Shown here piece by piece: positions 1 through 64,000 of a DNA stretch of 64,000 nucleotides. The notes under the pieces were generated by a model that saw only the letters and a program-made list of their open reading frames with translations, searched no databases and was not told where the DNA came from. A program made the position numbers and the translations under genes. The DNA is from Ascidiella aspersa (Eukaryota), in NCBI GenBank assembly GCA_963924565.1, contig OZ004608.1:4526001-4590000 (forward strand). Direction: 5' to 3'. Every line of letters begins with the position of its first letter. Position 1 is the stretch's first letter.

Positions 1-343
1 AAACTATTAGAGGACGAAAATAGCGACTCTGTAACCAAAAACTGCCAAGGTTTTTTTTTATTATTCGGGAACGTAGTTTAGAGAGTAGGAAATGAAACTC
101 AGCATATTAACGACAAGGTATATAAACTTTTTTTCAATGACGATGTAAAATAATTACACAGCGAGGTAAATAGTATGACGGTATAACAATTTACAGTTCT
201 ACACTTATCATCAAGCCAAAAAATTATCTTTTAAATTACGAGTGACACTAGAGATTTGTTATATACACATTTTACCAGCAGATGTTTTTAAGGTTTTTGT
301 GAAATTAAAATATAAAACGGGACACAACTCCATGTTCACTTAC

Positions 344-37461: not shown

Positions 37462-40400
37462 CTATCGCGGCGAACTTGAACACACAGAAGTGGCAACGCC
37501 TACGTCATTGACTTGACAGGTGCAGGTAACCCTTGACCCGGCGTCGGCGTGTTCGCTAATGTAGGTGCTCAAGCGTGTTTGGAAGTTGTTGTCGCTCTGT
37601 AAAATAAGTTAAAAGATTAGTATTAGTCGGCAAACTTAAAAAAACATATAGTTAATTAAAATCCCCCCAAAAAGTTAAAAAAAACTGTTAGTTAGCTAAA
37701 ATCTGGAAAGTAAAGTGGTCCAATGTTTTAAGGTTAACCATAAGTTAGTGATAATATGCGAAAAACTACTAGCAAGCGAAAGAGAAAATTTACTGGACGA
37801 CTTTAAGTTATTAATGTAGTAAAGTGATCGGCTACTATTTACATGGTACAGTTTATTATTTAGGTACACTTTGCATATATCTGTAATTAATGTAGCTTGA
37901 AAATGCATGTCAAAGCTGATTATAATTAACTGATAATAACAAAAGTGCGTTAAGAAACTTTATTTTAAAATAATGTCGATTTACTTAACCCATATATGTC
38001 TTTGACATTCATCTCAAGCTACAGTTTACCATGTTTTCGGTGTATAACTCACCATTTGGCTGGCATCCCACACAGATCCGCCAGTGACAGTCGCCAGAGG
38101 TACACACGCGTCGGTCTTGCTCGCCTTCACAACCGAACTTGCAACATCTTGTTTCGAGAAAGCTCGGTTCGTGTCAAATCCGTACATCTGAAGACGGATT
38201 TGGTTTGTTTAGGATTTTGTCAAAAACTCACGTGTTGGTGTTTAAAGCTCGCTTTTTTGAAATTGTTTTATTTTGCATCCAATTTGCTTGCAACTTGCAA
38301 GCCTTTTTTAAGGCAAACTAATAGTAATTAGAATATTTGTTAATAAAAAAAAACACTTTAAAACCCAAATTGTTAAGTCTTACAGTGTTCTAAACCATGT
38401 TAGTTTTTCCGTGAATCTTTAAAGTTAAAATAATATTTGCTTTAATATGATTAATAACTCATTATCCGCCTATATAAATTACCACTAAAGAACACTTGTT
38501 ATTTGACTAAAAATACTTTTCTTACCGATTTCCTTCCAGCTCTGATGGGGCTGTTTGGAATGTGGTGGAAATCGGCTCCCAGCTTCTTCACTTGCCATTC
38601 GACGTTGCCGAAAGAAACCTGGACGGGAAAAAGAGAATTTTTTAGCAAAATTTTACTGATAAGAAATCAAACAGAACTTGCGCCTCGCGTTTAACTAAGG
38701 AACTTAAGATGCTAAAATATTACCAAACATGCCATTTTTTACAGACAAAATCAATTTTGTTTAAGGTTGTTTATAAGATATTTCCAACTAAGGGAAAATG
38801 GTAATAGGCGAGATCAATTTACTTTTCAAGTAATTAACGATCTAAGTTAACATTGGAACGAAAATCCAACAAATCTATCCAAATCCTTTTAAAAACAAAA
38901 TGCTAACAATCTGAACCAAACGAACTGCCAAGGTTACCATATAATTATTTTAAACAACTCTTGTCTACTTAATGCACACGCAAAACGTTTGTCTACTTAC
39001 TGCGGTTTCCTGGCTACATTCTCCGCACGAAAGCAGGACGATGATCGGCTTTACTCCGGCCCTGAACTTAAGTGTAGTGGCGTAGGATACGGCGGCAAGA
39101 GCATCTCCTTCATTGCTGTCGGACACGTCCATCTTGCGAATAGCCTTAAACAGAGTTTTCTGCGAACAAAAATGCGAAAGTTTTAGTTTGGTCTCGCAGA
39201 AGCAAGAATTGGCCGAATTGGTATTTGTGTAAGACAGAGGCTTTGAACCTATGGGTAATTAACAAAATTATCGTCATAGGCAATCGTATTTTAGTCATGA
39301 TGGGTGTTGCAGACGTTTAGGAGTGATTCTAATTTCTTTGATATCTTTTTCTCGTAACCTATTACACACAGAAAAATAAATTGTCAAAGACCATTACAAT
39401 TTTATTGTGATATGCCAAAAACTGCTTGGTTGCCAAAACCTATAAATTGTGACTATTAATTTGGTTGTTCTCCTGTAAAATTAGATTTTTGAATCCGCCA
39501 TGTCTCGTGATTTATTATGTCCAGATTTTAAGTGATCATTGAGAGAAATAACTTGGGTCGAAATGAAGTGTTTTTTTGGTATTTTATTATAAATATTGAG
39601 CTATTTATTTCAAGTTTTGCACCAAAAAAAATTAGATTTGCAACCTGTCGATTAGTTATTTTTTGGTTGAATTATTATTGTTGATAATCGTACGAGTTTA
39701 CCAATTTTAATGGTCGTCGATTTATTATTATAAGAGTGATTTGACTCGGAGATGACCTGCTCTGAATGACTTGACTTGTTGATTTTAAAAACAAAATGTC
39801 TTCGAGTTAAGTTATTTCATAAATGGCTTGACTTGGACTTAAAACTGACTTGTTTACAACACTGATAGTTACCTTGTTGGTGGTGTAGTCACGTCCTTGC
39901 ATTGTGAAAGTGTGAGGAGCCTCGTCAGCTCCAAACCCAACCACGTAGAATCTGGAGTCACGGAGTCTGTCGCCGTGCAGTTTCGTGGCAAGTTTCTTGG
40001 TAAACCTCTTCATCGATTTCACGGTCCGTCTGACACGAACGTTAAACGCAATTAGCTTTTTTCTTCGCTTGGATGTCTTTATGCTTTTAGACTCTTGTCA
40101 AAATTAGGCATTGTTTCTGATTAGGTTTTTTTGCATTAAATGGAATTTTTTGTCACTTTAGAATTAAATTAAGATGATCCGAGTTTTACATTTTGTGGAA
40201 TAAAGTTAAGATGTGGTTTTACAAAATTACTGTTTGGCTAAAAATATCTGCCAATTAACAACTTAATCACATTTTGAAAAAAGGTGATTTGCAAATTCAC
40301 CTTAATTGAGGCAAGAGTATATACTGTGGGGAACAAATCGCCAACAGAAAGCATTTAACAATTCATTTCAATATGGCCGAAATTATCACCCTTAATAAAT

Positions 40401-43400
40401 GTTCTAAAAGTTCTATCCCAGAAATCTCTATTTTACAATTTATTTTCTTCGAGAGTTCAGTATCTTCCAAACAAAAATCGAAAAAAAATTCAAGTTCCGA
40501 CGGTTTTCAGACGTCGGGTTCGAACCCCACCTCAAGCAAGTGCTTTCTTGTACAACGAAGACGAGGTCGACTCCAGTGACGGACATGGCCCTGGTGCGTC
40601 CGGCGGCAAAGTGGTGCCCGTGGGCGTCCTGGCAGCTCTGGCACTGGTGGGGCATGACCAGGGGCGCACCGGCCAACTTACAGCGGTAAAGGTAGGCTGC
40701 AGAAGCGGCGCAAGACTTGTCCTGTGGATTAAATATTGTTGTAGTTAGATTTAGTATTTTTTGAAGTTATTTGATAGATTAGTCTTGGTTGATAGCCCTT
40801 ATAGAAAATACTGAAAACAAGTGGAACTTTGACAATTGTTTTCACTTTTGATTGATTAGACATTGCTTTGGGAGCACACTTGTTAACCTTAATATTCTAG
40901 ACTGGTCCTGTGGATTTAAATAGGATTGTAATGTTGCACTGAATATGTGATAATAAAAATTTGACCCTTGCAAGATAAATGTCGACCTCAATTTCTGATC
41001 AGTAACAGCAGAATAGACTAGCAAAGCTAGCAATTCAGGCCAGACACTATTAAAATATCTTTTAAGATATATATAAATTTCGCCGGCAAAGACATCTTCA
41101 GTATATGTTAATTCGAATAAATAATTCGAAAGATCTTTTAATAGTGTCTGACCTGAATTGCTAGCTTTGCTAGAGTACTCTGCTGAGATAGGGTTGTAGT
41201 TAGATTTAGTATTTTTTTAAGTTGTTAGAAATATTAGGTATTGCTTTGGCGTTTCTAATTCTTTTGAGCCCAAATTCGCAATAAAACATGTTAACGTTAA
41301 TATTATAGGGTTCGTTGTTAACGATAAATATGTAGTTATTAAAAATAGTTTTTTAGGTGTAATAAAGGGGGTTTAATTTTCGAGAGCGAATTTTTTTCTA
41401 TATGATCACGACTTCTTGTTGCATCTTATCGACTATAAATTACTGGCTTTTATCTAATATAAGACGAGATTCTCGGTTTAGCAAGAGTGGGTGTTTCTCT
41501 TCGCTTCCACACCGACACTCAATGTTGTAATGAATTAAGTCAATGACTTGACTTAAGTGCACTTAGGTCACTCTTTTCAAATGACTTGACTTAAGTCTTT
41601 TGCGCAAAATGACTTGTTTACAACACACTGACACCCACCCTGTTTCCACTGTCGCACACATCGTCCTGGCACATCCTCATGAACTCGGCGGGATCAACCA
41701 CCGGGAAGCAGGATCTAAATGGCGAAGATGAGCTCTTGAAGAGGTCGGCGCACGTCTCCGGGATGTTGTTGCTGGCACATGGGCGGTAGCTGTTGCGGCT
41801 GGCGCAGGAAACGCTGGAAGTCTGGGCAAAATGAAGGACAAAGTTTGTTATGATGTTTGGTCAGTTTTTTCAATTAACTGTATTTTTTTAGATTTAACAG
41901 GTCCTCGTTTACCTATCACTTCATTTACAAACTTAATAAATAGCGCTAAACGTGTGAAGAATACGATTATATACATAAAATTTACCTTCAGTACCTATGA
42001 TACTAATATGTAGGCTACATACGATTTAATATCAGTAGACATTTACATACAAATCAATATTATTCCATTAGAAACTTAATAAAACTCATGAACAATAATA
42101 AAACTTATAAAAAATAATAATAATCGCATTCTTACCTCCCATTCACTGGCGAGCTCAGCTGGGTCAGCGACCTGCCTGAGGTCAGGAGCCATAAAGTCAT
42201 CCGATGGTTCGTTGTTGAAGAGTCCCAGCATACCACCGGTGGAACCGAAGTAGTAGGGTGAGACATCGACCATGCAAAGCTCAGTCTTGAAGTTGCAAGC
42301 AACATCTACGTCGCCGTCCACGTGACGTAGGTGAACCACCTCGCCCTCCAAGGTCACTGCGATCTGTGAAGGTCGTTGTAGTTGTTGAGTTAAACAGGGT
42401 CGGAAAAATTACTAAAAAAAATAACTTAAAATGGCTACGTTTGGTGGAACTACGAACATTTATAATTATCTTCTTGTTTATTTAATCCCAAAAAAGAATG
42501 TGCAAGCTGGATTAGGGATTTATATTTAAAAAGAATCTTTAATTTGATTCCACATTACTTCTCAGGTTAAACTCACGTTGTCGATATGCAGAGGCGTGTC
42601 TCGTGCGTGTCCGTTCACTTGCACTGTGTAGTCGCTGAACACCGACACCTTGCGGTTGTCGACGATCAGCTCGATCGACGGTTTGGTGTCGCTAGAGAGG
42701 TCGCCGTAGGTCATGGCGACTGTGAACTTGTTGGTCCTGGTGTCGGTGACAAGCACAACGGTGCTGGGACAGTCGCTCGAATATTGGAAGTGGCGTTTGT
42801 CAAAGGTGCTGAAGTGGTCGAAACCGGATACAAAGGCGTGGCCCTGTGTGTGTGGAGAAAAGAGTAAGTTGGTTAACTAATGGCATAATGTTAGACTGCG
42901 TTTGGTCAGTAGGCATCAATTCGCCTTAAATATTCATCAATTCGCCTTAAATATTTCTACAAACAACCCTTACCTTGAACGGAGGAAGGAGTTCTTCGCG
43001 GCTCATGTAGACCACCGATCTGATCTTGTAGTACTGGTCGACATACGCGTACAGCTTGTTGACAGCTGCGTCCATCTGTACAGCAAGGGCAGTCTCGGCA
43101 AGCCAGGCCTTGATTTCGTCGATGGTTGGTACCGGGACGAAGTGATCAAGCTGCATTTAAAAATATATATACAGTTACCATTGGTTATACAATAGACTGA
43201 AATCTTGGCTCCGTAGTTCCATTCTTTACAGTGTTAAAGATACTGGATTTTTATGTTGAAATTGAGACAGGATTTCGCTATCCATTTTAATTGGAAAAGG
43301 TCGGACGGTGAAAATAACCACAACCAGAGTATTCAGTTAAAGCGCTTTGGGTGCACTGTAGAACCAACCAGAAATTTTACCTTTACTGCTTTTTCCACAA

Positions 43401-46400
43401 CTGGCGTTTGGCCGCTGTAGGTTTTTGATTGTTTCATATACATTATTCGTAATTTTGAACTAGAGAAGATAAGTGAAAGCACATAACAAATTTTTTCAAA
43501 GTTTTTATCGAATTTTTTTACCGATTTTTCACATGTTTGTAATTCGAAAAGGTCTAGTTTAATTTGAAACCTACCTCGAACTTAAGAGGGATGTTGATGA
43601 TGATTGCAGAATCGGTGATAGCGATCAGCTCCGAAAGTGGTCTCCTGCAAGCGATGAAGGTCGCTTCTCCGTTGGTGAGGATAAAAGCGGAAGTCTTTTC
43701 GATGACCTCATCAATCAGCTCGTTGAAGACCTCATCAGCGTTCACCTTTGCGAGAATACGAGCTACGAAGCTCAGCTGGGATTTAAACTCGGTTCCGATT
43801 TGTCTCAGGAAAGCGCCGTAGTGCTGGTCCACTACGTCAGCGAAGGGCTGCGCGACAGTGGACATCAGTTGATCAACAGCTTCCTGGAGCATAAGTACAG
43901 CGCGTTGCAGCTGGACTTGAACGATTGTGTGCGAGCTGTCGTAGTTGTCCGAGGCCCCGTTGAAGATGCTAGAAACCTGCTTCATGGATCCGACTCGCAT
44001 TTCGTTGATCTTAGCGATTGCGCGATCGATGGCCGCTGTGTTCATCTGGCGGACGTTATCACTTCCACTGACCGCTGAACGGCAGGACAAGAGGAAGTCT
44101 ACAAGCTGGTCAGCAAGCCAGTTGATCTTCCTGGTCACTTCGTTGTCGCAGGTGGACAGCATCTTGCGTAGGAAGTCGGTCACAACCGGGTATCCCTTAA
44201 ACTCGACCTGAATGAGCCTCTCGTCGACCAAGTTGATTGAAACCTTGCCGATCTTTGCCTGGCTCAGTCCGTCGCGTTGTACTTCCAGCAGGGCGTAAGC
44301 TGACTCTGCGTTCACTCCAACTAAGAGGTGAAGGGTGTGGATTGGTTCGTCGTTGTTCATGTATCCAATCCACATATCTAAACCGTCACGAGTAGTGCTG
44401 TAACCGTACACAAACTGCAGACCGGTGCTGGCCGCTTCGGAAGCTAGGGTCTTCATCAAATGACCGGCCTGGGTGATGATCTGGGTCAGGTCGCCGCTCA
44501 TAGTAGTCTCCTCCATGCCTGGGCTGTTCACAGTCACGCTAATCACTCGGCTCTGCTTGGCGTAGGCCAGTGCGAGCTTCCAGAGCTTTCTCTCAACGCT
44601 GTTGTAGTTCTTCACGATCACTTCGGTGGCGATGCGGTCATCTGCGTCCACCCCGCTGATGATAACATGGCTGTCAATGTTGGAAGCCGGGTAGCCGAAG
44701 CTCAGGGTTGCAGTCTTGTCGAAGCCGTTCTCGTTGCGAACAACCTCAATTCTTCCAGTGACGTCATCTGGCTCTCCGACCGGACTGTACTTGATGGTGA
44801 TGGATCCGTCCAGCATTCGGTCGCCTCCCGCCATGCGATATTGTGCCTGTGTCTTTACCTGTTCAATCAGCTCGTTGTCGTAGGTGAGGATGAGACGGAT
44901 GCCATTGGGCTTTGCGGTTAACTTGGCGCTGCCGGTGTTAACACGTGGCACGTGCATGCCGAAGATCTCAAGGTCGTGCGGGTGTGTCAAGGTCAGATCT
45001 CCCATGAAGCGCTTGTCGTGATCCAGGACTCGAACGTTGTAGTTGCCGTCCACGTGGTACTGGTTCCCGTCCAGGTCCATAGTTGCACTGAAGGCTGGGA
45101 TCTGTCTGCTTCCTTGCTGTTGGAAACTGTACCAAGAGGTAAGTCCAAGAGTACGGACAAGAAGCCACTTCGAAAGAGGTCCTGTTGTGATCATCGCCTT
45201 CATCGTCTTGTTGATTTGCTCGCCGTCATCCAATTCTCCTGCTCTCATTTCGAATCCCATCTTTGGCATGTCGTCGATCTGGAGGAACCCTCTTCCTTGT
45301 TTGACGCTTGCGGAATTGGAGGAGTCGGTGTCGATCTTAAGGTAACGGAGGAAGGGGACGTCGTAGTAGGCGAGCCTCCACAGGAGGTCGAAAGTGTGTC
45401 CGGTGGAGGTTGGCCTGTAGTTTTTCACCAGGGAAACCGCCTCTTCTCCCTTGACTAGGATGCGCCAGTCGCTCTCGTAGAGTCCAGAGGAAGAGATGGT
45501 CATCACTCCGCGGGTCGTGAATGTCTCAGGGATGGAATAGAAGAAGGGCTGGCGGATAACAACTGTAAGGTCGTGCTGGCCAAGAGCCTGGGGCAAGTCT
45601 CCAGCGTAACGAACGCCAATTCCGAACACGGAGCCGTCGAGGTCGACGCCGAAGTTGGTGATGAAGAGGTCAGGGGTTCTCTGGTCCTTGTCTGACTTCA
45701 CAGTTAGTTTGCCGAAGCCGAGATCCTTGGAGGGCTGAGTGAGCGAGATGGTGTGCTGTTCGCGGAGATCCTGCATCGTGCAGTTGGCCACAAACTCAAG
45801 GCTCTCGTCAGCGCTTCCCCACTGGACCTTAATGGTTTTCACGTGGTTGTCAGAACTGGTTACGTTGGAGCCCGAAAGGATCACAGTGCTGGCCGTTTCG
45901 CTCCATGGCTGTGTGAGTCGCACGTTGAATCGATTGGGCGCAAATTCACCGGCAAAGGCAAGGGTGCTGTCGCCGTACTCGGCCTGGAGCTTGCAGTTGT
46001 AGGTCTCGCGCTCGGCGTCCACGGAAGAGTTAAGCGACGTTGAAAAGGTGAAGGGCATCAGGTGCAGCTCAGAGAAGGCAAAGAGCCCGCCGTAGAAGTC
46101 GAAAGCGTCGTTGCCGGACGGACAAGCGTACAAGGAGAAGTGCATCTCTTCGTTTGTGTCGCGATCGGTCAGCATAAAGGTGGCGGTCGAGTTACCAGTC
46201 TTCTTCTGGAACATGGACAGCGATCCGACCATGTCCAGGTTAACCTCGAGCGGCGCGAAGATAACAGCCACGTTCATGTCCTTGGTAGGCTCGCTGGCGT
46301 AGGTGCCGGTTACCGAAGCAATGCTGCCCTGGGGCGAGTTGATTGCGAACTCGATCTGTCTGTTCTGGACGTTGAAGGTGAGGTAGTGCCTGTCGTCAGC

Positions 46401-49400
46401 CACAACACTGGCGCTCCACTGCTGCGGGTTGTAAACCACAGAGGCGATGCTCTCGGCCGGCATATCGGAGTTCATGTTCTGTGAAAGGCTCCATTCGGCA
46501 TCAAAGTTCTCGCGGTCCGGCATTGTATAGGAAGCAGCGCTCGTGATACGGTTTCTTCCGTGCGAGAACTTGAGGTTGTAGCCGTTCGAGTTAGTCGAAA
46601 AGGCGACTCGGCTTCTTTCATTGGTTGGGTCGAACTCGTTGAGCAGAGTTGCTAGAACGTTGACGAACCAAGAGTTGTACTTGGCCTTGATGCCGGCGTT
46701 GAGAGTTGTCTCATCCTTGGTGTAGCTAGCCTCAACAGACTGGCCCTTGAAACCTTCGGAGTCTTCTGGGATCGGCGAGGTTTCGAAGGTGGCGCTGTGG
46801 GTGTGTCCTCCGTAGCTAAACGTGTTGTCAACACTTAACCCGCATCCTCCTCCGCTCAATTGGTAGTCAAATTGCTGGTCAAGCTGCGTCTCGTAAAGAT
46901 CAAACTGGATTCTTCCGCTGCCGTGACCTTCTCCAAAGTTTCCCACGACGTTGAAGATATTGGCGTCTTGGTTGTCCAGTTTCACCAGGAATTCGAGGCT
47001 GTTTACTGTTGAGCTAAGGTTGGCGTCGAAATCGTAACCCATCTTATCGTATCGCCCAGTGTAGTGTATGTCGTTGTTGTTATAGTTGTACGTCATAGTG
47101 TAGTCTCCAGCTCTTACTTGATCAAGTTCGATGACTCCGTTCAAGGTCAGTACTCGGTCGACCACGTTGTAGCTGTAGGTCTCGTGGTAGTCCCTGTAGC
47201 CCAAGTACTCATCCAGTTGTGGCATATTGTGGCTCATAACCTGGCTCACAGAGCCTGAAGTGCTGAAAAGACGCTCGGTGAAGTTATACCAAATCGTGTA
47301 CTGGTTCATTTCAGCTCCAATGCTTGCGTCCAAGTTTGTAGCCTCATTGCTCATCTCAGTGTTGACGACGAACTTCTGAGCCAAGTGCGTAGGGACGCTC
47401 AAGTCGCTCAGGTAAGGCACGCTGTGGTCAAAGTAGACGTTCCCGATGGTGGATGTGGTCATCCTGGAAGCTTGGTGACTCCCGATCACACCAGTCGCCA
47501 CGCTCATGTCATCAAAGCGGAAGTTAAGAGACAGGTCGAGTCCGGATTGCACTGGCCTCTGAATAAAAGAGGCCTCACTGTTGGTGGGCACCCCATGGTC
47601 GCGTTGAAGCTCCTTGTTCTTAAGGCGCAGAGTAACGCGTGGGTTGAGGCTATCAGCGAAAATCACAAGCTTGAAGTCATCGTTAGCTTCCAAAGTGTTG
47701 GCGTGCGTCATCCTGGCCATGAAGCGGTCGTCGTTTCGGCTTCTGCTCAGCGTGAAGTTGCTAGATCCGTTCACGCTTCCCTTTTGCGGGTTGATAAAGC
47801 TGTAGGTGTCGAAGAGCTTGTAAGAGTACATGGGCTGCGACTCGATTCTAACGTCGTGCGATCCGTAGTACTTCTGCCCGTCCACGACGGCTCCGTGGCT
47901 TTCGCGCGCCTTCATGCTTTCAATGGATCCGTTAAACCTTCCTAAGGTGATGCTGTTTGGAACACCGGCATCTGTAAGCTGTGGGATGCTCTGTGTAGCC
48001 TCGAAGTCGACCTGGAAGCTGTAAGGTCCGTTAGTGCTGAATTCAACCGAAGGGGCAACGCGCAGGCGAATGTGCGCGTGGTCTGGTCTGCTCTGTTCAC
48101 CGTTAAGCACCAGCTGGTAGCTGTACATGCTGAAGCGCTTGAAGTCCATAGACCCTTGCACGGTTCTTTCCTGGCCGTTGTACGTGTGTGTGTAATCCGC
48201 TGTAAGCGCAACGTTGTTCTCCGTTCTGGTTGGAGTGATAGTAGCCACGCCCTGGTAGTCGTGGTCCACAATCAAGTTAAGCACAACTGCCGCCTCGTAA
48301 GATGCTCCGCTCTTGCGTCCCTTTAGCTCCACTTCCATGTTACTTGGGAAGTCCAGGGTCTGGTGCACGATGTCGATGTTGTGCTGAGCGCTGAGGGCAA
48401 TTCCGTACCAAGCGTCAGAGGTCAATCCGGTCATTACGTTGCCGTTTAGGTTCACGTAATGATCGTCATAGGTGGCCGCCGCCGTGAAGTTGTAGAACTC
48501 AAGGCTCCCGGAAAGCTCAAGGCCCACTTCCGACGGCATTTCCTCGCTCTCTAGGATGGTCTGACTAGCGTGGATGCGAACGTGGTTGGGGCTGAAGTTA
48601 ACCGATCCCTGGGCGTTCTTCGCGTTCCCCTGCTTAGTGTAGGACACTGACCCGTGCACCGACTCGGCTGTGAAGCCAAATGTGGCGCGAATGTCGTTCG
48701 GGATGTAGGAATCAAGCTCCGGGAACGAGTGGGTCCCCATAAATAATAGGCTCCTGGTGTTGATCTGGCCGGACATCTGCCTTACGACGTCGTCCATTGT
48801 AAGTGTAATGCTTCCCTCAAGAGGCTCCATGGTCCCGCTAACGGCAAGGGTTATGTTCTTAGGAAGATACTGAGGTACTTCTGGTGCGCTCTGGAAGAGA
48901 GATAACAAACCGCGGCGCCGGTTAACAGATCCTCCAACTTTGCGGACGAGTCCGTCGATCGAGATGTAAAGCTCTCCGCTCATCGGTTCCATACTTCCTT
49001 TGAGACCAACGATGATATCGCGTGGAATCAGGAGGTTGTCAAGCTCCACGGCGTTGTGGCTTACACTTCCGCGCATCGCAGCCAAATCCAAAGTGGCCGA
49101 AGCTTCCTTGGGGATTCCATCAACCGTGACGCGAACTGTGCCGCTGGGAGGCGACGCAGAGCCGCTCAACTCGATCTTCAAGGATCCAGGAAGAGGAAGC
49201 TCAGGGATGCTGTGCATAAAAGTGGCCACAAGGTTCTCAGGGTCCACGGAGGCGCTGGCGGATCGGCTGATCTCGTCCACCACCAGCTTAAAGGATCCCT
49301 GGAGAGGCTCGCGTGTTCCTGACATCTTTAAGGCTACGTGACGCGGTAGAGGCAGGATCTCGAAGTCATGTCGGATCTCGAACTCGAGCGCTGTGACGTC

Positions 49401-52400
49401 ACCCTCGGCTGTGAACCGCTGGGTGGTGCCCTCGTGACGGTAGCTAGCAGTGACGTTTGGTCTCGGAGTGAGTCTCGCTTCACCTGAGAGTCCGATCGAC
49501 TGCGGCACCAAGCTGGAAAGCTCTGGGATGTTGTGATCCAGACTCAGCGAGAAACCGCCCGGCACCAGGTTTTTGCGGAAGGTGACGCTCCTGCTGACGT
49601 CATCAAGGAGAGATGACGTCACGCGAAAGCCGTCGGAAAGCTTCTCGTAGCCGCCAGAGACTCCGAACTGCTTGGAATCGACAATAGCGTCGGCCGAGAT
49701 ATAAACGTCAGGAGTGAGGCGGAAACTTCCACCAAGGGTCATATCGTTAGGGATGTATGTGCTGTCAAATCTGTGCGAGATCTGGACCTGGCCTTGCTGG
49801 TTCTCGTAGTTTCCTGAAAGGGCAACGTCCTGCTCTACTCCGTCCAATGTGAGCACCATGGAGGCGCTGGGACCTCGCTTGGTGACCACCACTCGGATAT
49901 CGTTGGGCTGCTGATCGAGGTTGTGGTTGAGGTGGACTGACGCACGGGTTTCCTTGTCGCTGTTGATCTCTAGTACGACGTTCTTGTTGCCGTAGTGGCC
50001 GTGAGCGCTGCCCACGATCCCGGAGGCCCATTCGGAGGTAAAGGAGGCTCCCAGAGAAGCAGGAACGCCAAGGGCCTGGAGGTAACCGTCGTCGAGTATG
50101 AGGCTGAATTCGCTGGACAGTTCCTGGGGCTGTTTGTTGTAGCTTCCTTCAATCGCGTGGCGAAGCGTCACTTCGTCCATTGTGACGTTCACCTGGCCGT
50201 AGAAGGATTCCTGCGTCTTTCCGAGAAGAACATTTACGGCTCCGTCTCTAGGAACAAACGTTGGGATCTCTTCAAAGTCCTGAGTGTAGCTGACCTTGCC
50301 GAAGACCTGATCGTCGGTGTACGAGTAACTGACACTGGCCGTTGCCGTGTTGGTCACCCTTCCCCTCTTTATAACAGCGCGGACCATGTGGCTCTGGTCG
50401 GTTGCCACGTACGCCGTGTTGATCCTCGTGATCTTGGGGATGTAGGCGTTCTTTCTCCACGCGTTCTGCGAGTGTCGGAGCTCAAGGCTGGCGGTCATGT
50501 CTTCGATGTCGTATCTAAAGTCGACAGAGACCTCGAAATTTGGCTGCTCGCTGCGCTGAAGGCTCACAGAGGCCTGGAGACCGTTCTGAAGGCTACCGGA
50601 GGTGTCCAAAGTGATGTCGACTGGGAAGATGTCGCTGGTGACGAACTGCTGGTTGTTGGTGAGGTGCAGTGTGGTTTCCATGGCATTCATGTCCAGGTTC
50701 CCGGTAAACTGGGTGTGCAGTTTGAGTTCGCGCTCCAAAGACAACTGGACATTGCCGATGAGACTTGCATCTTCAAGAGTAAAGGTGCTTTCAAGCTGCG
50801 AAAGGGCGGGCATGACTTCGGTGTCAAAGTTTTGTTGCAAGGTGCATTCCAGCCCGTGCTCCGTATCGCTCCTGCCTGTCTTGGTGCACTGAAATCCGGC
50901 CCTACCACGAGTAGTGCGCAAATCAAGGCTGTATCCGTCGCTGTTGAAGTTGAGCGATCCTGCCAAGGTGATGTTAGGGAAGAACTCGTCGGTTGTGAAG
51001 TTGTGAACGATCTTGAGCTTGAAGTCCGGGATAGATGTGATTGAACTCCATCTTCCGTCCACCTTTCCGGTCCTGATCTCGTCGCCCCACTGGTAAGTAA
51101 GGTAGGAGTGCACGTCGCTGGAGCTGTGTAGAAACTGGCTCTCGAATCCGATCGCTTTTGGCACGCCGAACTGCTCAACAATCATATCAAAGTTGTGGTT
51201 GAAGTAGAAGATGAGCTTCTTCTGGTTCCCGTCGTAGTCCAGCTTAAATCCGACGCTTTTCTCTGCCGTATCGTAAACGATCGCCAAGTCGGCGTCGTAG
51301 TTGTCGTGTAGCTGGAAGCTCACTGACATGTTGCCCGGAATACCGTACTGCAAGATGGCCGACACGTTGTGGTGGGTTACCAGGTAGAAGCTGTTCCGGT
51401 CAAAGTTCTGATTCATCGTAACCGAGGCTACCTGCTTCACCTGGTCCAGGGTGACAGACATGGCCACGGACTTGTGGAGGATCGGAGAGCCGGATGCGGA
51501 GCCGGACACGACGATATCGTACTCGAAGGAGTGCGGGAAACTATTGATGTCAAAATCGTGGTTTCCAGCAAGGCTGATGTGCCAGTTAAAGAGCTCGATA
51601 ATGACCGTGGCGCCCGCCTGGTTTCGCAGCACGCTTTCAAGGCCGGTTTTCGGGTCGTACATGGTTCGCTCGAGGTTGGTAGCCAGCTCGAGTGAGCCGG
51701 ACATACTGGCCGGGTTCAGGAGCCCGTAGTTGATGGTGGTGACTTTGCGAATGCGACGCGGGACTCCGAATCCTACAAGAGGAGTGTGCTGCTGCCAGTC
51801 GGTGGTGATGACAATGTCGCTCTCTCCAAGAGCAACGTCCACTGAAGCGGAGGAAGTGTAGACATCGTCGTCCAACTGCAAGGAGCCATCAGCGTTCACA
51901 GTGTGGTGCGTCTCAGATCCTTCGTACGATCCGCTGGTGATGAGGGTGACGTTGCGGAATACTCCTAGATCTGTGAGTTCCGGGATGTCGTGGGCGAATC
52001 CAAGCTTGAGCGTGTTGCTGGTGGTGTCGAAGCCTCCGACTACAGAGAACTGCTGCACGTTGTCGTTGATGGTGGACGAGATGGTCACCATGTAACCCTC
52101 TCCGCTCTGGGCCACTGTTAGCTCCTCAATGATGCCTTGAGGAACTCCGAACTGCCTTAGCTGGACCAGGTTGTGGTTAAACCTTGCAGTAAAGGTGTCC
52201 TCTTGTTGGGAGGTTGCACGGTGAAGACGACTCCTCACAGTACGCTCGCTGTCGTTGCCAATCGTGTATTTGAGGCTGGTTAAGATGTCGGTTCTGTAGT
52301 CGGTCTTGCCGGCCAACTTGACGTGCACGTTTGGGATGATATCGGTGATGTTCTGCGCAAATCCGACAGTGACTGCGACAATTGCTTTCTGCTTGTTGAT

Positions 52401-55400
52401 TGGATACTCAAGGGCTGAGCTGATCGAACCGCCAACGCCATTGTAGTTTCCTGCCAGGTTAAGAGAGAAACTAGATTCCTCAAGAGTGTAGCTGATCATC
52501 GAGTGGCCAGAGTTTGGAATCCACCAGCTGTTTCTGTCCTCGAATATGTCTTGTGACCAAGTGGCGGCGTAAGTGTTGGAACTCTTATCCCCGTCGAACC
52601 TAACATTAGCCGACTTGGTTACTCCGTCCCGGGTGAAAGTAAGTCCAAAGGATCCATCGGTTGTTTGCTTCTGGATAGCGAGCTCGGCATTGCCTCCGAT
52701 CACAGGGCAGTTGGACACGTAGCGGATGCTGCATAATCGCTCGTTCGAGGTGACGACCAGTTCCGAGTGGATCAGATCAACGTCGGTGATGATCTGTCCT
52801 TGGTAATGGTCGCTGTCTCCAGGAGTGGTGTCTTTCATCAGGAGCTTGTTGACCCGAGGGATGTCATACGCGTCCAATTCTGAGATGCCGTGACGGATCT
52901 GGAAGTCGAGGCGATGTGGCTGCCACTGGAGTTCAGTGAAGGCAAGCTCGTCACTTCCAACTGTAACGCGGGCCTGGAGGTGTCCGTTGGTGGTTGCGAC
53001 GCGGTAACTGGTCATCGCGTCAATTCGTGAAGGCACAGAGGCGAGGGACCTGACGTTGTTCACGAAGAGGAACTGAACGCGGCTAGTGGCGCCTGCGTAG
53101 TACATCGCCTCTGCGTTAAAGTCCTCCCTATCGATGTCGGAGCTAAACCATAATCCTTGTCCTCCGTCACTGGACCTTTCGCCCCACTGCAAGTTGGCGT
53201 TGATAGCCCTCGGCACCTCCAGAGCTGCCAGCTGGTTAACGTTGTGCGACCAAGTGGCGCTCACAGAGCTGTCGCTGTCCTTTCTCAGGTTCAAAGAAGC
53301 CGATCTTCCGTTCATTGTAACGACGCCGTCGACGCTCGTCTGTCCGCGAGTGATGGTGAAGGAAAGGTCCTCCGGAATGTCTTCAGTAAACCGCTGGTTT
53401 GCGCTTCCTGTAAGTCGCGCAAAGTTGGCCGACAGCTCTACAGAAGAGGTCAGTTTGATCTGGTCGTTTTGCACGTAGTTTAGAGTGAGCGTGTGGCCGC
53501 TGTTCAGGGTGCTGGTCACCGTGGCCGTGGTCGCCATCTTGTGGGGCGCGTACGGCAAGATTTGCTGCCGCATGGTGGCCGAGACCGTGTTGACTCCGGA
53601 GTTGTCGTCTGTGATCTCGTAGGTGTGACCAAAGTCTCCTCCTAGAATCTCATCTCTGTTCATGGTAATGACCAAGTTTGCGCTGCTGCTTCCTAGGGAC
53701 TTCTCGAGATGAGCGGAGGCGCTGAGCTCCTGCACCGGGATGTTGGGACTGCTGGAGGTGAACGAGATGCTTCCGGAGTGTCTCATCTCGCTCTGAGCCT
53801 GCAGGGACTCTTTGTTGCCTAGCAACTGGAGGAAGCGCTTGATTCCGCGGTCGTCCTTGTAGTCGATGCGAGCTTTGCTCATGGCGGTCGTCTCATCGCT
53901 CTCAACGTCCAGGTTCATCTCCATGAAGATGCTGGGATCATAAAGGAAGATAGCGTTGGTCTCAAAGCCTCCTTCCTTCTGTCCTTGGTAGCGAAGACTT
54001 GCGTTCACTTGGCGGTTGTACTCGGACACACAGGAGTGGCGGGTCTCGAATCCTCCCTCGATGAAGTCGAAGGTTGATCTGTAGTGGAGGAGCGATGCTC
54101 CATTGGCTCCGCGAGACTGAACCTCCAGGCGCTTGTTGTCCGGAAGATTGTCGACGAAGATGTCGGTAATGATGTTGAGGCCTTGTGTGTTGTCCACTGA
54201 GATCTTGTGGTTTAGGTGGTACTTGTGAGGCGCAATCATGTCCAACTTGTCGTGGAAGATAATCTGGCCCCAAGGAGTTGGGAACTCTGTGCGCATCACG
54301 TAATCCCAAGTGGTCCCAGTCGCCTCACGCATATCATGGTACTCCATGAGCCATTGATACTGGTTGTAGTTAACGCTGGTTGTGAACTGCTTGGCGTTGT
54401 ACTCATGGCTTACGGCGGCTGTGTACTTGATCTCGTAAGATGGCAAAAGGAACTCAGCAGAGCCTTGGATGTTGTTCAAACCATCTTCAAAGGTCTTGAT
54501 GTAAGTCTGGTTGATCGACATGAAGTTGGTGTTGTCCTCATGCCCGGCGTGTCTTCCGACTCCCACTTTGACATACGAGCGGACCTCATTCGGTCCGTTT
54601 GTGTAGTTGTAAAGCACGTGGTGGTTTATCAGTGGGAACTGAGAGCAGACGAACTTCTGCTGTGCTTCCCAGTGGGTCACTGAGGAGCTGGTCGGGTTGC
54701 GCCGCTTGTGGACAAAGATCACGCTGCGGAAATGGAAATGTTTGATTTCTATGTGGGCCAAGTTTAACGAAAACAAAGTAGCAAAAACCATCATTTTTAT
54801 GTTTACTGAGTGGGAAAGAGTAAGAATCTAAATCAAAAGTTACCAAAATTAAAACACACAAATCGACTAATTTGTAGAGTCCAAATATTTTAATATGAAG
54901 TTATCAACACATAGTAAAAGTAAAAATATGCCTCTCTAATACCGAAAGTAGGATTTTATGGTAAGACACAACTAGAGTATCAAAGCCAGCATTTTTTTAT
55001 TTCCATAAGTGTCACCGGATTAAGCAAGAAAATTGAGTGGGCAAGAATCTAGATTGAAAATTAATAAAAAGTTGAAGCACACAAATCGATTAATTTGTAG
55101 AGTCTAAATGTTTTAAGGTCAACGAATTGGTCCCTAAGTTCTTCGGTATTTTTTTTTCTATTTTAATTTTTTTTGGATAAAAATCAAAGCGTGTCACATG
55201 CAACCGAAAATTACTTGATTTTCAAAGAAAAAAATAAATGATTTTTTTTATGTTTCGCTAAATATGCCTCTAATGCCGAAAGTGACGTTTCATGACAAAG
55301 ACACAATTAGAGTATCGAAGCACATACAGAAGTAGGTTGCATTTTTAACGTTTAGGATATCTGTTGATTTATTTGTAGGCAAATGTTGTTTAAACTGCTA

Positions 55401-58400
55401 CCTACTTCTGTATGGGCTTCGAAATTCTTGCTACGTCTTGCTACAACCTCCAAATATTATGCTACAAAACGGTCAGCCAACACTCACTGTTCCTCGTCTT
55501 GGTCAGTAAATGTATAATCGAGTCTAAAGCTGAATGCGTCCAACTTAGGCTTGATGCTCATGTCAAATCCAACCCCGCTGTCAACAATTCCTGGCAGCTT
55601 GAACATTGCCTTACCGTTGTAGCGAAGTCGGTTGTGAGCGGGTACACTGCTATCGGCCAATGAAACTGTTGGAAGAAGATATAATTGGCGTTAAACCTCT
55701 AATTGCTACTTTGAGATAAACCAGATGGAAATATTTTAAAAGTAGCTTCAGTGGCAGGGAGTTAATCACACTATTTCTTTATTTCTCTATCTACATTCCG
55801 TGAACAGCTGAAATGAAAATTACGTTAAAGCATAGTTTACAGATTGATGCGTGTTAAAGTCACGGTTTGTTGCTCAAATATTTAACGCGAAATGTTTTGG
55901 CGCTTTCTTTAGGAACTATGGTCAGTACAAAAAGGCAATTTAAAAACTATAATCATGTTAGAGTTGAAATTAGTGAATGCAGAATCCGGATGAAATATGA
56001 TGTAAATCAGATAAACTTAAGTTGGCTACTTTTTTTTCTTTTTAAGTCCAACGTTCCCATTTTTGTCACCCAAATCCAAAGCATTGTACAATGTTTTAGT
56101 ACTGTTAAAGTTTAAAAAGCGGCCGATTTCAATGTTATAAACCTTACCTTCAAGAGCGATCGGAGAAGGCATGAGGTTGTTGATTGTCATGTTGACCAGT
56201 GCTTTCTTGGATGGGTCAAGTATGACCATGGCCTGACCGGAAATGACCTTCTCAGGTGTTTGGAGGGAGCTCGTCATTTCCCATCTGCTTTCAGTCAACT
56301 CATTCTGTTTCTCCAAGGCAGCCTAAAAATAAATATGTAAAAAGTTATGCTTATTTACCAGAGAGGACTGTTTTTTGTTTTCTTTACCATGCCCACTGAA
56401 AAACTTCCTTTTCATAGCAAAACCTTTGTCGACAATGTTATAATTTCATTTAAAAAAATTCATTTTTATTTGAATTGTAGACTACGCGTCCAAAACAGCG
56501 ACAACTTTGACTTTATGTAAAGACTGGCGGTGGATTAGTTTAGCGAAATGCAAACTTACAGAGAATACGTTGTTTGCTCCATTTCTGTTGTATTGAACGT
56601 TAATCGCCTTGCGGTTCAGGTCGTTCTCTACGATGGCTGTAATTAAAAAACATTATTACAAACTAAAAATCATGCAAAATTAATGGTGGTGTTTTTTTAG
56701 GTTATCCTGTAAGATCTTAAATATGGCTAGTAAAGGTTTTGGGATCAGAAAGTTAAAAGCTAGTCAATTGTTTTCAAGAAAAACAAAACAAAAATATTTA
56801 CAGTAAGCAGCTTATTTTTTACTGAGATTTTTAATAGTTTATTGCTCAATATCGCGACTATACCATACTTTTATAATATAAAAATAGTTTATGGTATTAT
56901 ATTCGGAAAAATCGGTTTTCGGTGTCCCTTTGCGGTCGTGTCAGTTTAAAAGCAGTCTTTTTACCTGCCACTTGCAGTTGGTTGTTTGGTTGCGTCAGAT
57001 GTAGGTTGAACTTCATCGCGTTGACGTCATAATGGACTTCGAGCGAGCTTTTCCTGTTGACGCGGGAGTTGGGCGTATCCATGACAACGGTGGCGTTAAG
57101 TGCGGTCGGGATGTCACTCAGCTGAGTGGTAAACCGTTTTTATGGCTCAAGTTCGTAAATTAAGTGCACTTAACTCTAAACTTGACTTAGTTTAAAGAGA
57201 CAAAAAATATGAAAATTACTTGAGTCAAATAATAAAAAAAAAAAATATATATATATACAAATACCGAAATGTTCAAACAGTTTAATTTTACCGCGTTTGC
57301 TTTTAATTTAAATATTGGTAAAAGTAATTTAATTCAGGGATGTAAAAACAAATAACTTTAATCTGGTTAGCCTAATCCATGTTTTTTACTTGACTTAGGT
57401 ATTTTCGTTAAAACTACTTTACTTGAGTTCCACCATTTCGATAAAAGACTATACATGGACATAAGTCTTCTTTTTTTAAATAAAATACGTTTCATAGATG
57501 TTGCAGTATTCCCCTTAATTAAAAAAATCTAATTCCATTTTATGTAGGACGGTTTAAACCCAGGGCGCTTGCTCGACACTTCAAACTAAATACGAGTTTT
57601 TTGTTGTTTTAAGGATGTTACTATAGTAAAAACGTTTCATAGCTGTTGCAGTATTCCCACTGTTCCAAAAAATCGTATTCTATTTTACGGGAGACGGTTG
57701 GGCGTTTTACTCATCTAAGATACGAGTTACTCAGTTGAGTTTACCGGCGAGTATGTGCTGTCGTAGTTTGCGGTGAGCAAGTAGTGGTCAAATCCAGTGT
57801 CGGTCTTCTCCAAGTAGACTGTGATATCGACTGGTCCGTTGGTGGGGAGCACATAGCTAGCATCATCGTCCTACAAAAACAAAGTAAAAAATTAAGCAAT
57901 TTCGAACTTTTGATGGCTATTTTAAGTGTATTTGGCTAATTTGTGAATTTTTGCCATATTAAGTGTACGTTTTCTGATTCCTTATGCACTGATAAATATT
58001 AAACTTGGTACAGATCTTAGTAAAACCAAAAATCAGTTTGTTTGGATGTTACATGATAAATATATTTAGCTCTTAAAAGCATCATCGATATCTTAATTCG
58101 AATGAATTCATTGTATATTGCAAAGTTTTGGGACGGAGGTTATACTTTTTTCAGCGAAAGTTTTTAGTAGGTTTGTTTCCTAAGCTTGCGAAAACCGGAT
58201 TTAAGTTTTAAATTTTTGTCATTTAATAATAAGAAAATCAATAACAATATCTATATAAGCGTTGGTAAAATCGTAATATTAACCGACACTTCAGTTGTTA
58301 CTAAAGCCAGGGGGGAAATGTTGTTATTTTTGCATAAAAAGAAGGCTTGATTTTTTTTTTACTTTTAGTTTTAATTTTGTTATGCTTTTAGTTGTACGTA

Positions 58401-61400
58401 TTTTTATTTATTTTTTAAATAAATAGATATTAAAAAGGTTGTTTTCTAATTTGTTAAAAAAAATCACATCAACAAAGAAATGCAAGCAAACCTACTCATT
58501 TTCGATCAAAATCATCGCGTTCAACTCACCTCTGAGTAGCGACTCATTGAGTTGCTGATGCAAACTCGTTGTCCAGCGAACTCGGGTTTGCAATCGCTCT
58601 CAATCCTCGCCAAACCGAGCAGACCCTCGCGAGCCTCAACCTTCTGGTCGCCCACGATCTTCAGCAACTTGTGGCTGTGTGACGTAACAAAGACGGTTTG
58701 TTAAACGAAACAAGGGGCTGTGATTTGTTGTTGTTTGAATTTCGGATGGTTGTATGATCTTAAGCTAGTGGCTCTTAAACTGTTTTGTATCTTTACTGTA
58801 TAAATCAAATTTCATTATACAACCTGAAACAATTAGTAAATTTATAATCTGCAATCAATTAGCTGTAAACCAACACTTTGTGTAGTCCTTTGTGACGTAA
58901 TGTCTTAAGAGAAGTTAACTTAGAAAGGTACTCTTTACTACAAAGCATTTAAATATGTTGTATATGCTATTATTGTCAAGATTACCCCATAAACTTTGAT
59001 TTGGAGATTATTACCCACAGTTACAGAACAACTATTTCAATAAGATGCTGGACAGGGTTTATTTAGATTCTAGAAAGTTTGCATCCAGTTGTTAGTTGTG
59101 ATGCGCTTTGTATTTGCGCGTGTGTGCACGTGAGTGCGTGTATGTGCGGTCACGCGGGTCCGTTTCGAATTCGGTTGGCCCGGGTGTTCAATCAGTGCCT
59201 TCGGTTCAAGCGAGTGCAAATTGCCTTGAAAGAGTTGCACCAGGAATCAAATGCTGTGTGTTTTGCACGAACTGAATGTCTTGCCCAGTGTGAATTGAAA
59301 GGTGGCCTTTGTGTCTTGTTTACGAAAAGCTGTAAATACGACCGCAGATAACCTTTCCCAGGTGGGTAAATTTAACATTTGTGCCATTTTACACTATAAA
59401 ACTATAGAAGACTTTTGTTGTTTGGCAGTGTTCAATGTACCATTTTCAGTCCTCTTTTAGAGCTACTTTTCTAAGCAATCGCTTGCGGAACAAAATTCGG
59501 TTAAAATGTGCATTCGCCTTTCAAAATACGGCCACCAAGAGCTTCCAACGATTGTTTTAAAACTTACATGATGATTTAACATTACAAACGTCGTTATAAT
59601 GAGTGAATATTCGAGTGTTTTAGCGCTGTGTTGAAATAACTGAGTCAGATAATTTAGTTTGCCTGTTTAAACAGTCAATTCCGAAGTGTCTTTCGTGCTT
59701 TTTGCAGCCCATTTTTAGATCAATGTACTTACTCTATGAAGGCGTAGGCTGCTACGTAAGCTTACATTAAAAAAATACATAAATACAAAAAAATGAAAAA
59801 GTCAGAATCCTTAAAAACGTCTAACAATATTAGCCACTGATTTTTTCTCAAGCTTACTTGAAACTGAACACTGTGTTGCGTTCGTAGGGTGCGTCAAGCT
59901 TGACTTGCACACGGCTTCCGCGCTCAACCATGACCTTGCCTCCAAGGGTCCATGACGTAATGGCCGACGACTCAGTGGCGATTCCGGTCCTGGTCACGTG
60001 ACAATCGACGCTCATCGAGCCGGTTACCAGCACGACTCCCCTGGAAAGAGAAAGCGTTTTACGTTGTGGTAAGCGGTGGTACATTTATAGTGTTTGTCAC
60101 GGTTTTTGATTTATTGGATTCAAAAAACTTCTAAAAATGGCGTAAAATTTTATATTTTCTAATTAAATATATTTTGCCGTTTCAATCTTCTATTTTCTGA
60201 GTTTTCTGACTAGCCATTTCGTTCAAAGTGAAAATAATGTTTTTGTCGATTGTTTTCATAGAGCTTTTGCTATCAGGCTCCAATTAAAGTACAAACATGA
60301 CTTTTGATATTTCAAATAGATAGACAGCTGCCCTATTTTTTAAACTGTATTTCGATTGACGGTCGAAATCTTGAGAAAGAAGTAAGCAACATTCACAAAA
60401 CCCCAGCTAAATTGACGAAAAATTCGGTTTCGATATGGTCGAGTAGATTTCGCATTTAGTCGATCAAGTGTTAGTACCTCTTATCTTATATAAAAAAATA
60501 AATACCTCGGTGTAAGGGATCCAAGGATGTCAATAGACGGGGATGTTGAGAACATCTGTGTCATGTCCATTTTTCCGTTTGCGGTCACGTCAATGCTCGC
60601 AGTTCCGTTGAAGGCCAGTGTGAGGGGAAGTCCCGCCGATGTGGGGATCATATGAGCGCTGTTCATGAGCATCATGTCGTCGTGATACTTGTAGTTGGAT
60701 CCCTGTCATGTGAAAACGAGCAATGTTTAGGTAAACATAAGGTTGTATAATAATACTCCAACGTTATGTTAAAAGACTAATTCAGACAAATTAACAAACT
60801 CTTTTATAGGAGCATCTTTATCACCATGAAGGCGCAAAATAATACCTAGATACTTTTTTTATATTTAACGCACGAATTACCGTTGAAACGGGCATTGAAA
60901 AAGGAAATCTGTCGTGTGCATTGAAAACAAAATCTTTACTGTGCATTAAAAAGGCCTACTTCCATGAATAAAATGTTTTACCTGAGCAAGTCTTGCCAGG
61001 AATGGTGCAACGTCGATGGTTCCAACTTGAGCTTCGATCGCCGGCATTCCTTTGGTGTTCCAGTAGACCATTTCGTTACCGAAAAGTCGCATGTACATCG
61101 AGCCGCTCGGCTTGTCTTCCTTGGGAACCCGGTTGGCGTGCTACGCAAAGATTAAATCGTATTTTAAGCAGACTTTACTACGTCTTTACAAGGCAAGGAA
61201 AAGATGACTGCAGTAGACGAGTGCGCTATGTATATTTAATTTATTCCTTCTTAAAAATTTGCTACAAGTTTCGGAACGTACCAAAACAGTACAAGATGAT
61301 TAAACGCAATGTCTTTAAACAGAACTTACTTTTGCAAAAAAACTCGCATCTGCGTTTTTAATACGTAGATAAAAGTATTAGGCTGTAGAACCAAATTATA

Positions 61401-63946: not shown

Positions 63947-64000
63947 CTGCAGTAGGAAGGAAAAGTTAATTTTTCACCCAAATTACCGTGTTCATTCTCA

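Follow-up and report, generated by a model that had tools for sequence, protein, structure and literature searches.

Does a giant exon in an ascidian genome encode a lipid belt assembled from one repeated unit, and how far does such a repeat extend? The question is raised by a 64,000-nucleotide stretch of Ascidiella aspersa DNA (contig OZ004608.1 of assembly GCA_963924565.1, positions 4,526,001 to 4,590,000 of the forward strand; hereafter, the window), whose numbering is used throughout. On the minus strand, the list of open reading frames gives a frame of 3,757 codons (54827..43554), which encloses an exon of 11,149 nt (54723..43575; 3,716.3 codons) with AG/GT borders. Judged by its sequence relatives, the gene codes for one of the large lipid transfer proteins (LLTPs), of the apoLTP/LOC400499-like type. 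A first interpretation, made from the DNA letters without database searches (the sequence-only reading), had claimed that a degenerate unit of about 50-60 residues builds most of this exon. The results show that the repeat is real and old, with 52-65 residues per unit, and we consider it fairly probable that the repeat region is an apoB-like belt wrapping the lipid of a secreted lipoprotein.

For the repeat itself, all 14 units quoted in the sequence-only reading were found in the 54827..43554 frame when read from the translation. The motif scan resulted in 17 matches, including 13 of these 14 units, against a mean of 0.77 and a maximum of 6 in 1,000 shuffles; its pattern was tuned on the motif of that reading and is not an independent test. 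A chunked self-comparison was used because whole-frame self-BLAST culls off-diagonal matches. As a result, 17 off-diagonal matches were obtained at E<1e-3, the best at 3e-17, and none in three shuffles, so that the self-similarity check proposed earlier came out significant. The reversed sequence is no control for this comparison because repeats survive reversal. The core units are mutually 24-34% identical, with E-values down to 3e-17.

An iterated profile recovered 20, 21, 19, 22, and 17 units in the five orthologues submitted to it. Its E-values are inflated by self-inclusion, and therefore held-out tests were run. With the core masked, a profile of the core units only gave 8, 5, 7, 7, and 7 matches outside it in the five orthologues (0-1 in reversed sequences and 0 in 100 shuffles). 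A profile built from a distant block gave 12, 7, 10, 7, and 11 matches elsewhere, including the core (0-2 in reversed sequences). The iterated profile matched none of 21 other LLTPs at iE<1e-3, although these included apolipophorins and insect apoLTPs that are just as beta-rich. At the DNA level, the unit period does not show up as a tandem repeat, and the protein repeat is therefore old. When 15 tunicate sequences were pooled, the resulting profile drifted to a width of 116 columns, and its coverage figures were discarded.

The repeat does not build most of the exon. Of the frame, 34% is taken up by detected units, and of the span to which they had been assigned (47200..53260), 58%. According to the held-out profiles, some 20 units lie within frame residues 470-2540, the first motif position being residue 472 and the last 2531. 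At iE<1e-3, no unit was found before residue 470 or after residue ~2320; weak matches reach ~2540, with one more at residue 2676, and the first 470 and last 1,200 frame residues contain no clear unit. The regular period that had been noticed in the most orderly copies was confirmed: at 48429-49556 it measures 52-55 aa, or 156-165 nt, and the copies there show the pattern G-x-x-E-P...G...D-G-x-x-R. The long gaps between units are approximately multiples of 56-64 residues, a spacing that is not significant, as 127 of 2,000 nulls were as good. The beta moment is above that of shuffled sequences in all eight segments preceding residue 3530, and the beta-type alternation lasts to this residue. No long helical stretch was detected before it, using segments of 220-550 residues, a length that short inserts could escape.

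The number of units differs between species. Between fixed flanks, six orthologues harbor 5 units (spans of 265-271 residues), the window gene and those of Clavelina, Ciona, and Phallusia harbor 6 (321-323 residues), and a 5,390-aa protein harbors 8 (422 residues). These whole-unit differences between fixed landmarks were observed across all 11 orthologues and agree with the proposed tandem amplification of a beta-sheet module. The units group mostly by position across species; the array is therefore old and changes by whole units.

In an alignment of 37 core units, hydrophobic and polar columns alternate strictly, the Pro is present in all 37, and the His/Gln in 36. The 376-residue core was submitted to AlphaFold2 with 12 sequences, and the best model (pLDDT 84.6) comprises 28 strands, four for each of the seven units. 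Each modelled unit has a loop of 9-12 residues after the first strand, with the predicted pattern His/Gln-x-hydrophobic...hydrophobic-Pro, and the other turns have 2-5 residues. A difference in hydropathy between faces greater than 2 was found in 23 of the 28 modelled strands, and the face difference was 3.4, compared with 1.7 (maximum 2.5) in 1,000 within-strand shuffles. The core, restricted to these 376 residues, is thus predicted to form a continuous single-layer amphipathic antiparallel sheet, and on this point the alternation of hydrophobicity and the 28-strand model support what had been proposed. The sequence-only reading had described the module as a beta-sheet plus a short amphipathic helix; the sheet was retained, whereas the helix is not a constant part, since only three of the seven modelled loops contain a short one and the short-loop units have none.

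The fold comparison of the core model returned single-layer meander sheets. Lipovitellin (1lsh_B) was aligned across 127 residues with Z 9.5 and a root-mean-square deviation (rmsd) of 5.8 A, which no other of the 50 rows shown undercut. The belt fragments of apoB-100 were aligned with Z 8.4 (9bde_A) and Z 7.8 (9coo_A) at an rmsd of 25-28 A. No VPS13, ATG2, or AsmA chain was among the 50 rows shown for each of two listings, an absence that does not count as evidence.

The assignment of the gene was based on its relatives and domains. The exon is 44% identical to the Phallusia orthologue across its whole length. The closest named proteins are ascidian, from Clavelina (5,509 aa), Ciona (LOC100186072; 5,477 aa), and Phallusia (5,424 aa), and the 5,390-aa protein is a further close relative. 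The ascidian orthologues carry Vitellogenin_N and the open beta-sheet (together PF01347 and PF09172), as well as PF21013, VWD, and C8 domains. On the window exon alone, PF21013 scored 24.9 bits, below the cut-off of 27 bits, which three of six orthologous exon products passed; the domain is listed for all four full-length ascidian orthologues. No repeat unit was detected in the PF21013-matching stretch (54213..54692). With the Phallusia orthologue as the tblastn query, 30 exons were located across the window and the 5 kb that follow it, including 19 upstream exons matching at 42-82%; the first exon, which would encode the signal peptide, was not found. A tree of the N-terminal module placed the tunicate proteins with the mollusc, chelicerate, insect apoLTP, and fish LOC400499 rows, split from six apolipophorins with 100/100 support; the tree has 21 rows, is unrooted, omits apoB and vitellogenin, represents the window gene by its orthologues, and has a long branch for the fish row.

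The exon is transcribed. One stranded RNA run gave 1,490 reads on the exon region, with all 30 depth bins covered, and 20 and 11 reads crossed its two splice joints. A contig from another RNA run corresponds exactly to the giant exon. Between the RNA runs and the window, substitutions alone and no indel were listed at 43575-54723. The G+C content is 53-56% within the exon and 30-41% in its flanks.

We also found the unit outside this gene. A second LLTP gene was located in the same genome (G000:C2, ~17,722,000-17,749,000, plus strand), with an open frame of ~3,914 codons in which there was no Pfam match. The orthologue profile, which was never shown this paralog, detected 24 units in its frame and 0 in the reversed frame. 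In the opposite direction, a profile of paralog units, first picked with the orthologue profile, detected 11-14 units in all five orthologues (0-1 in reversed sequences), and HHalign between the two unit profiles gave 98%. The paralog has about 32 detected units with a period of ~65 residues and is strongly periodic (0 of 2,000 nulls); the earlier statement that the unit builds most of the exon therefore fits the paralog better than the window gene. The paralog is near silent in RNA run X5, with 2 reads against 1,490 on the window region, and is represented by spliced contigs at low depth in run X2.

When 20 window units were searched against 1.84 billion cluster representatives, 16 matches were obtained, comprising nine tunicate-type sequences, one teleost LOC400499 protein, and six bacterial repeat proteins. 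The bacterial proteins (P0038, P0041, and P0043-P0046) were rejected as Ig/HYR/MBG-type repeats summing weak scores. The teleost protein (XP_068195918.1 of Antennarius striatus; 3,545 aa), on which the presence of the unit in vertebrates rests, keeps the chordate loop motif in residues ~1650-2600, and its own best self-matches centre on this motif. A short motif profile matched it four times (0 in the reversed sequence and in 30 shuffles) and matched none of 17 protostome LLTPs; the profile has limited specificity, as it also matches three of the six rejected bacterial proteins. No shorter homologues of the unit were found among 7,998 scored candidates, and the ESM Atlas gave only leads below 0.9, with one chordate cluster at 0.85 that has PF21013 on 18% of its members.

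Four protostome apoLTP-like proteins show self-similarity of their own, with a different unit of ~55 residues and a T-P-F loop, which also occurs in Penaeus and, weakly, in insect apoLTPs. The T-P-F motif was matched 13-20 times in each of the mollusc, chelicerate, thrips, and shrimp proteins (P0006-P0009 and P0015), compared with ~1-2.5 times in shuffles. Cross-detection between the chordate-unit and T-P-F profiles fails. The HHalign comparison of the two units gave 16% and 39% in the expected register, 2-6% with reversed sequences, and 4% for the core alone, a result that is no more than suggestive of a common origin of the chordate and protostome repeats. The sharing of the unit with the paralog and the fish protein, as well as the repeat-built protostome relatives, lay beyond the reach of the sequence-only reading.

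The unit had been described as not belonging to any named repeat family, and this description held against Pfam families and the apoB-100 sequence. The Pfam scan of the 20 units resulted in five single matches to unrelated families (E 0.02-0.14), and that of the whole window frame gave no repeat-unit family. Against PDB sequences, the unit profile had one irrelevant match at E<=10 and the whole exon had none. The fish LOC400499 protein matched apoB-100 in the N-terminal module only. Proline-rich repeats of 25 and 52 residues were reportedly described in apoB-100 in the 1980s. No description of the unit was found in the open-access literature searched, a search that most subscription papers fall outside, or in the passages retrieved from PMC1783640, PMC12214520, and PMC12561791. 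The architecture is that of apoB, and the orthologues are already deposited in public databases; the unnamed unit and its spread appear to be new.

The belt that we favor would be assembled as follows. Each unit would add four strands to one continuous beta-sheet that is greasy on one side, and the sheet would wrap the lipid of a secreted lipoprotein in the manner of apoB-100, whose amphipathic belt around low-density lipoprotein has 120 strands, measures 61 nm, and is secured by nine inserts (PMC11839476). Because four strands per unit is an even number, all loops would lie on the same edge of the meander, where the three to four conserved hydrophobic residues of each loop may act like small clamps, lined up in a row, that hold on to the lipid surface. 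These clamps may do the work of the large helical insert that apoB-100 has in the middle of its belt and that is absent from this exon. Gain or loss of an entire unit could be tolerated because it would leave both the greasy face and the loop edge in register. Extrapolating the 13.4 residues per strand of the core, the exon would contain ~260 strands; each unit would add ~2 nm, and the whole beta region, if continuous, would reach ~130 nm, twice the apoB-100 belt.

Several points weigh against this belt. The evidence for it comes from sequence, transcripts, and prediction, and the placing of all loops on one edge was derived from the strand count and not from coordinates. Only 376 residues were modelled well; the other four of the five AlphaFold2 models had pLDDT 64-67, pTM was 0.45, and the first fold, of 571 residues with six sequences, failed with pLDDT 51, so that its Foldseek search was uninformative. 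The good core model gave no Foldseek match at E<=0.001. In the fold comparison, outer-membrane barrels scored equal to or above lipovitellin and apoB (Z to 10.7, with high rmsd), and the match therefore indicates the type of sheet, not its function. Finally, insect apoLTP, which the tree shows as a relative, does not carry lipid in bulk but catalyzes its transfer, and it consists of a head and a hinged tail (PMC4486166).

The last point belongs to an alternative, in which the sheet curls into a groove or tube as the hinged tail of a catalyst resembling the insect lipid transfer particle (LTP) and moves lipid between particles and cells without wrapping a droplet. The N-terminal tree favors it, since insect apoLTP and fish LOC400499 fall on the side of the tunicate proteins and the apolipophorins do not. 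The insect LTP, whose lipid head is spherical and whose tail is hinged, catalyzes transfer (PMC4486166), and its particle is dense (1.23) and lipid-poor (PMC3406001). The core model also aligns with curved sheets, including Rhs/teneurin shells (Z 4-7). However, the unit is four-stranded, unlike the repeating beta-groove (RBG) module, the tree is unrooted and lacks apoB and vitellogenin, with a long-branched fish row, and insect apoLTPs do not have the chordate unit (0 motif matches in all 17 protostome proteins). We regard this alternative as unlikely.

A second alternative, to which we assign a slightly lower probability, is that the protein is mainly an ascidian yolk precursor, cut into lipovitellin-like pieces, to which the repeat would add a sheet storing lipid and amino acids. 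The protein most abundant in Ciona eggs goes under the name vitellogenin and is seen as an apoB-like band of ~100 kDa (PMC10951915), and two of the three APOB rows in the supplement of that study have 841 and 174 peptides. In Halocynthia, VWD and C-terminal pieces of vitellogenin are part of the egg coat, and the hepatopancreas contains a long vitellogenin mRNA (PMC9265791). Two such LLTP loci exist in the genome studied here, and the UniRef name of the Clavelina orthologue is 'Vitellogenin'. However, the Ciona and Halocynthia genes could not be mapped to this orthologue group, and a yolk role is compatible with a belt in a circulating form and leaves the invariant Pro and His/Gln unexplained.

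The sequence-only reading had also inferred that the repeat lengthens the belt and perhaps sets a larger particle size. Such a ruler could draw on the whole-unit copy variation and on an exon that is, by extrapolation, about twice the apoB-100 belt. However, the variation amounts to 3 units, ~6 nm of the extrapolated ~130 nm. ApoB-100 holds particles of 17-70 nm by sliding, and the largest lipoproteins are those with apoB48, which is only half as long (bioRxiv 10.1101/2024.02.28.582555); the dense, lipid-poor insect apoLTP argues in the same direction, and ascidian particle sizes were not found in the literature searched. A ruler function is thus unsupported and improbable, whereas a function like that of the apoB belt is likely. 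Mere amphipathic beta periodicity without a true repeat, for which one could cite the ~28-residue repeats that HHrepID finds in apoB-100 residues 1528-1944 (PMC9569473) and the six unrelated bacterial proteins among the 16 matches, is very hard to reconcile with the identity of the core units, with held-out profiles that cross-detect both ways and across paralogs, and with 0 matches among the 21 equally beta-rich LLTPs; the core and the clear units refute it, and it may still apply to the stretches between detected units.

If the apoB-like belt is correct, the repeat offers a concrete and testable route for the growth of apoB-type lipid belts, by four strands per step with the register kept. 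It also suggests, for the first time, what structure the unannotated middle part of LOC400499-type proteins from tunicates and fish may have. The LOC400499 family has a human member and, judged by the search listing, is not characterized in the papers found under that name. Unlike whole apoB-type belts, the 376-residue piece of seven units is small enough for expression and liposome tests. As a tentative and rather doubtful extension, the four-strand unit with its loop may be the ancestral block of apoB-family belts: the His/Gln...Pro and T-P-F loops would derive from one module, tunicates would keep it best, apoB-100 would have eroded it, and vertebrates would retain LOC400499 as a second, uncharacterized belt apolipoprotein built of repeats.

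Table 1. Location of the giant exon, its repeat units, and the other parts of the gene in the window (residues are those of the open frame).
Feature	Position	Strand	Evidence
Giant coding exon of ascidian large lipid transfer protein	43575..54723	-	Open frame, AG/GT borders, RNA, orthologue alignment
Core tandem array, 7 units of 52-55 aa, residues 1758-2133	48429..49556	-	Self-comparison, held-out profiles, model
Two short-loop units directly upstream of core, residues 1627-1728	49644..49949	-	Unit profiles
Single clear unit, residues 1510-1563	50139..50300	-	Held-out iE 1.3e-8 and 5.6e-7
Degenerate unit, residues 1384-1439	50511..50678	-	Held-out iE 3.6e-4
Three adjacent long-loop units, residues 1083-1260	51048..51581	-	Last two: paralog-only profile iE 1e-4, 8e-6
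Two adjacent long-loop units, residues 877-998	51834..52199	-	First: paralog-only profile iE 1e-7
Three degenerate N-terminal units, residues 470-518, 520-576, 638-659	52851..53420	-	Held-out iE 0.003-0.008; paralog profile
Dispersed C-terminal units, residues 2142, 2272, 2462, 2526	47199..48404	-	Unit profiles; last two weak
Amphipathic-helix exon end, residues 3530-3752, sole long helical stretch	43575..44240	-	Helical moment 1.22 vs 0.91 shuffled
Partial Pfam PF21013 (LOC400499 family), profile positions 133-298	54213..54692	-	E 9e-6, 24.9 bits
Upstream exons, lipid-transfer N-terminal module	55488..63949	-	tblastn with Phallusia orthologue; PF09172 on two exons
Seven further upstream exons	past window end	-	tblastn with Phallusia orthologue
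Downstream exons: VWD, C8, C-terminal tail	37474..43150	-	tblastn; PF00094 and PF08742 matches

Outside the giant exon, three further observations were made, all on the minus strand. Exons of a dual-specificity phosphatase lie at ~300-12500, with PF00782 on one of them, and we presume from its motifs that the gene is CDC14. The open beta-sheet exon at 61813-62151 contains an acidic stretch followed by a basic site, which we take to resemble the furin-type cut region of other LLTPs. Furin-type cut sites are described for apoLTP (PMC3406001). The C-terminal tail after C8 (37474-40100) has a vWA-like look, the exon tested from it had no Pfam match, and one Ciona fragment of the orthologue carries the name 'VWFA domain-containing'. 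The egg-coat fragments of ascidian vitellogenin derive from the VWD and C-terminal region (PMC9265791).

Among known systems, lamprey lipovitellin (PDB 1lsh chain B) resembles the predicted core as a curved single-layer lipid-binding sheet, but its sheet is short and closes a cavity, the identity is 6%, and it has no such repeat. The RBG modules of VPS13 and ATG2 (PMC9719229), to which the sequence-only reading had compared the unit, are also head-to-tail beta-meanders with one hydrophobic face and one longer loop per module. The analogy does not carry through, because RBG modules have five strands and a loop crossing back over the sheet, in contrast to four strands in each of the seven modelled units, and RBG proteins are cytosolic bridges, whereas the window protein would be, by its domains, a secreted-type LLTP. 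The protostome apoLTP-like proteins (Gigantopelta, Centruroides, Frankliniella, Penaeus, and insect apoLTP) share the same side of the N-terminal tree, and several also consist of beta repeats of ~55 residues, each with a single loop that contains Pro, although this loop is T-P-F and not His/Gln...Pro.

With apoB-100 (PDB 9bde, 9coo, and 9e9r; PMC11839476), the window protein has in common an LLTP N-terminal module, then a very long amphipathic sheet, here a predicted one, of a single layer, and a helical region at the C-terminal side. The unit has no sequence match there, and the window protein does not belong to the apoB-100 belt family by sequence. ApoB-100 has nine irregular inserts of 30-700 residues, whereas the window protein has one small loop every fourth strand; the window exon, unlike apoB-100, has no long mid-belt helix, as its helical moment rises only at residues 3530-3752. 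The window gene keeps VWD and C8, in contrast to apoB-100, and its sheet would be about twice as long. The teleost protein XP_068195918.1, which represents the vertebrate LOC400499 family here, is shorter (3,545 aa against ~5,450), its repeats are more decayed, and no full-length alignment runs through the belt; PF21013, which names the family, covers the region ahead of the repeats and not the unit itself. Nevertheless, it has the same domain order as the ascidian proteins, the PF21013 region, and the same loop motif.

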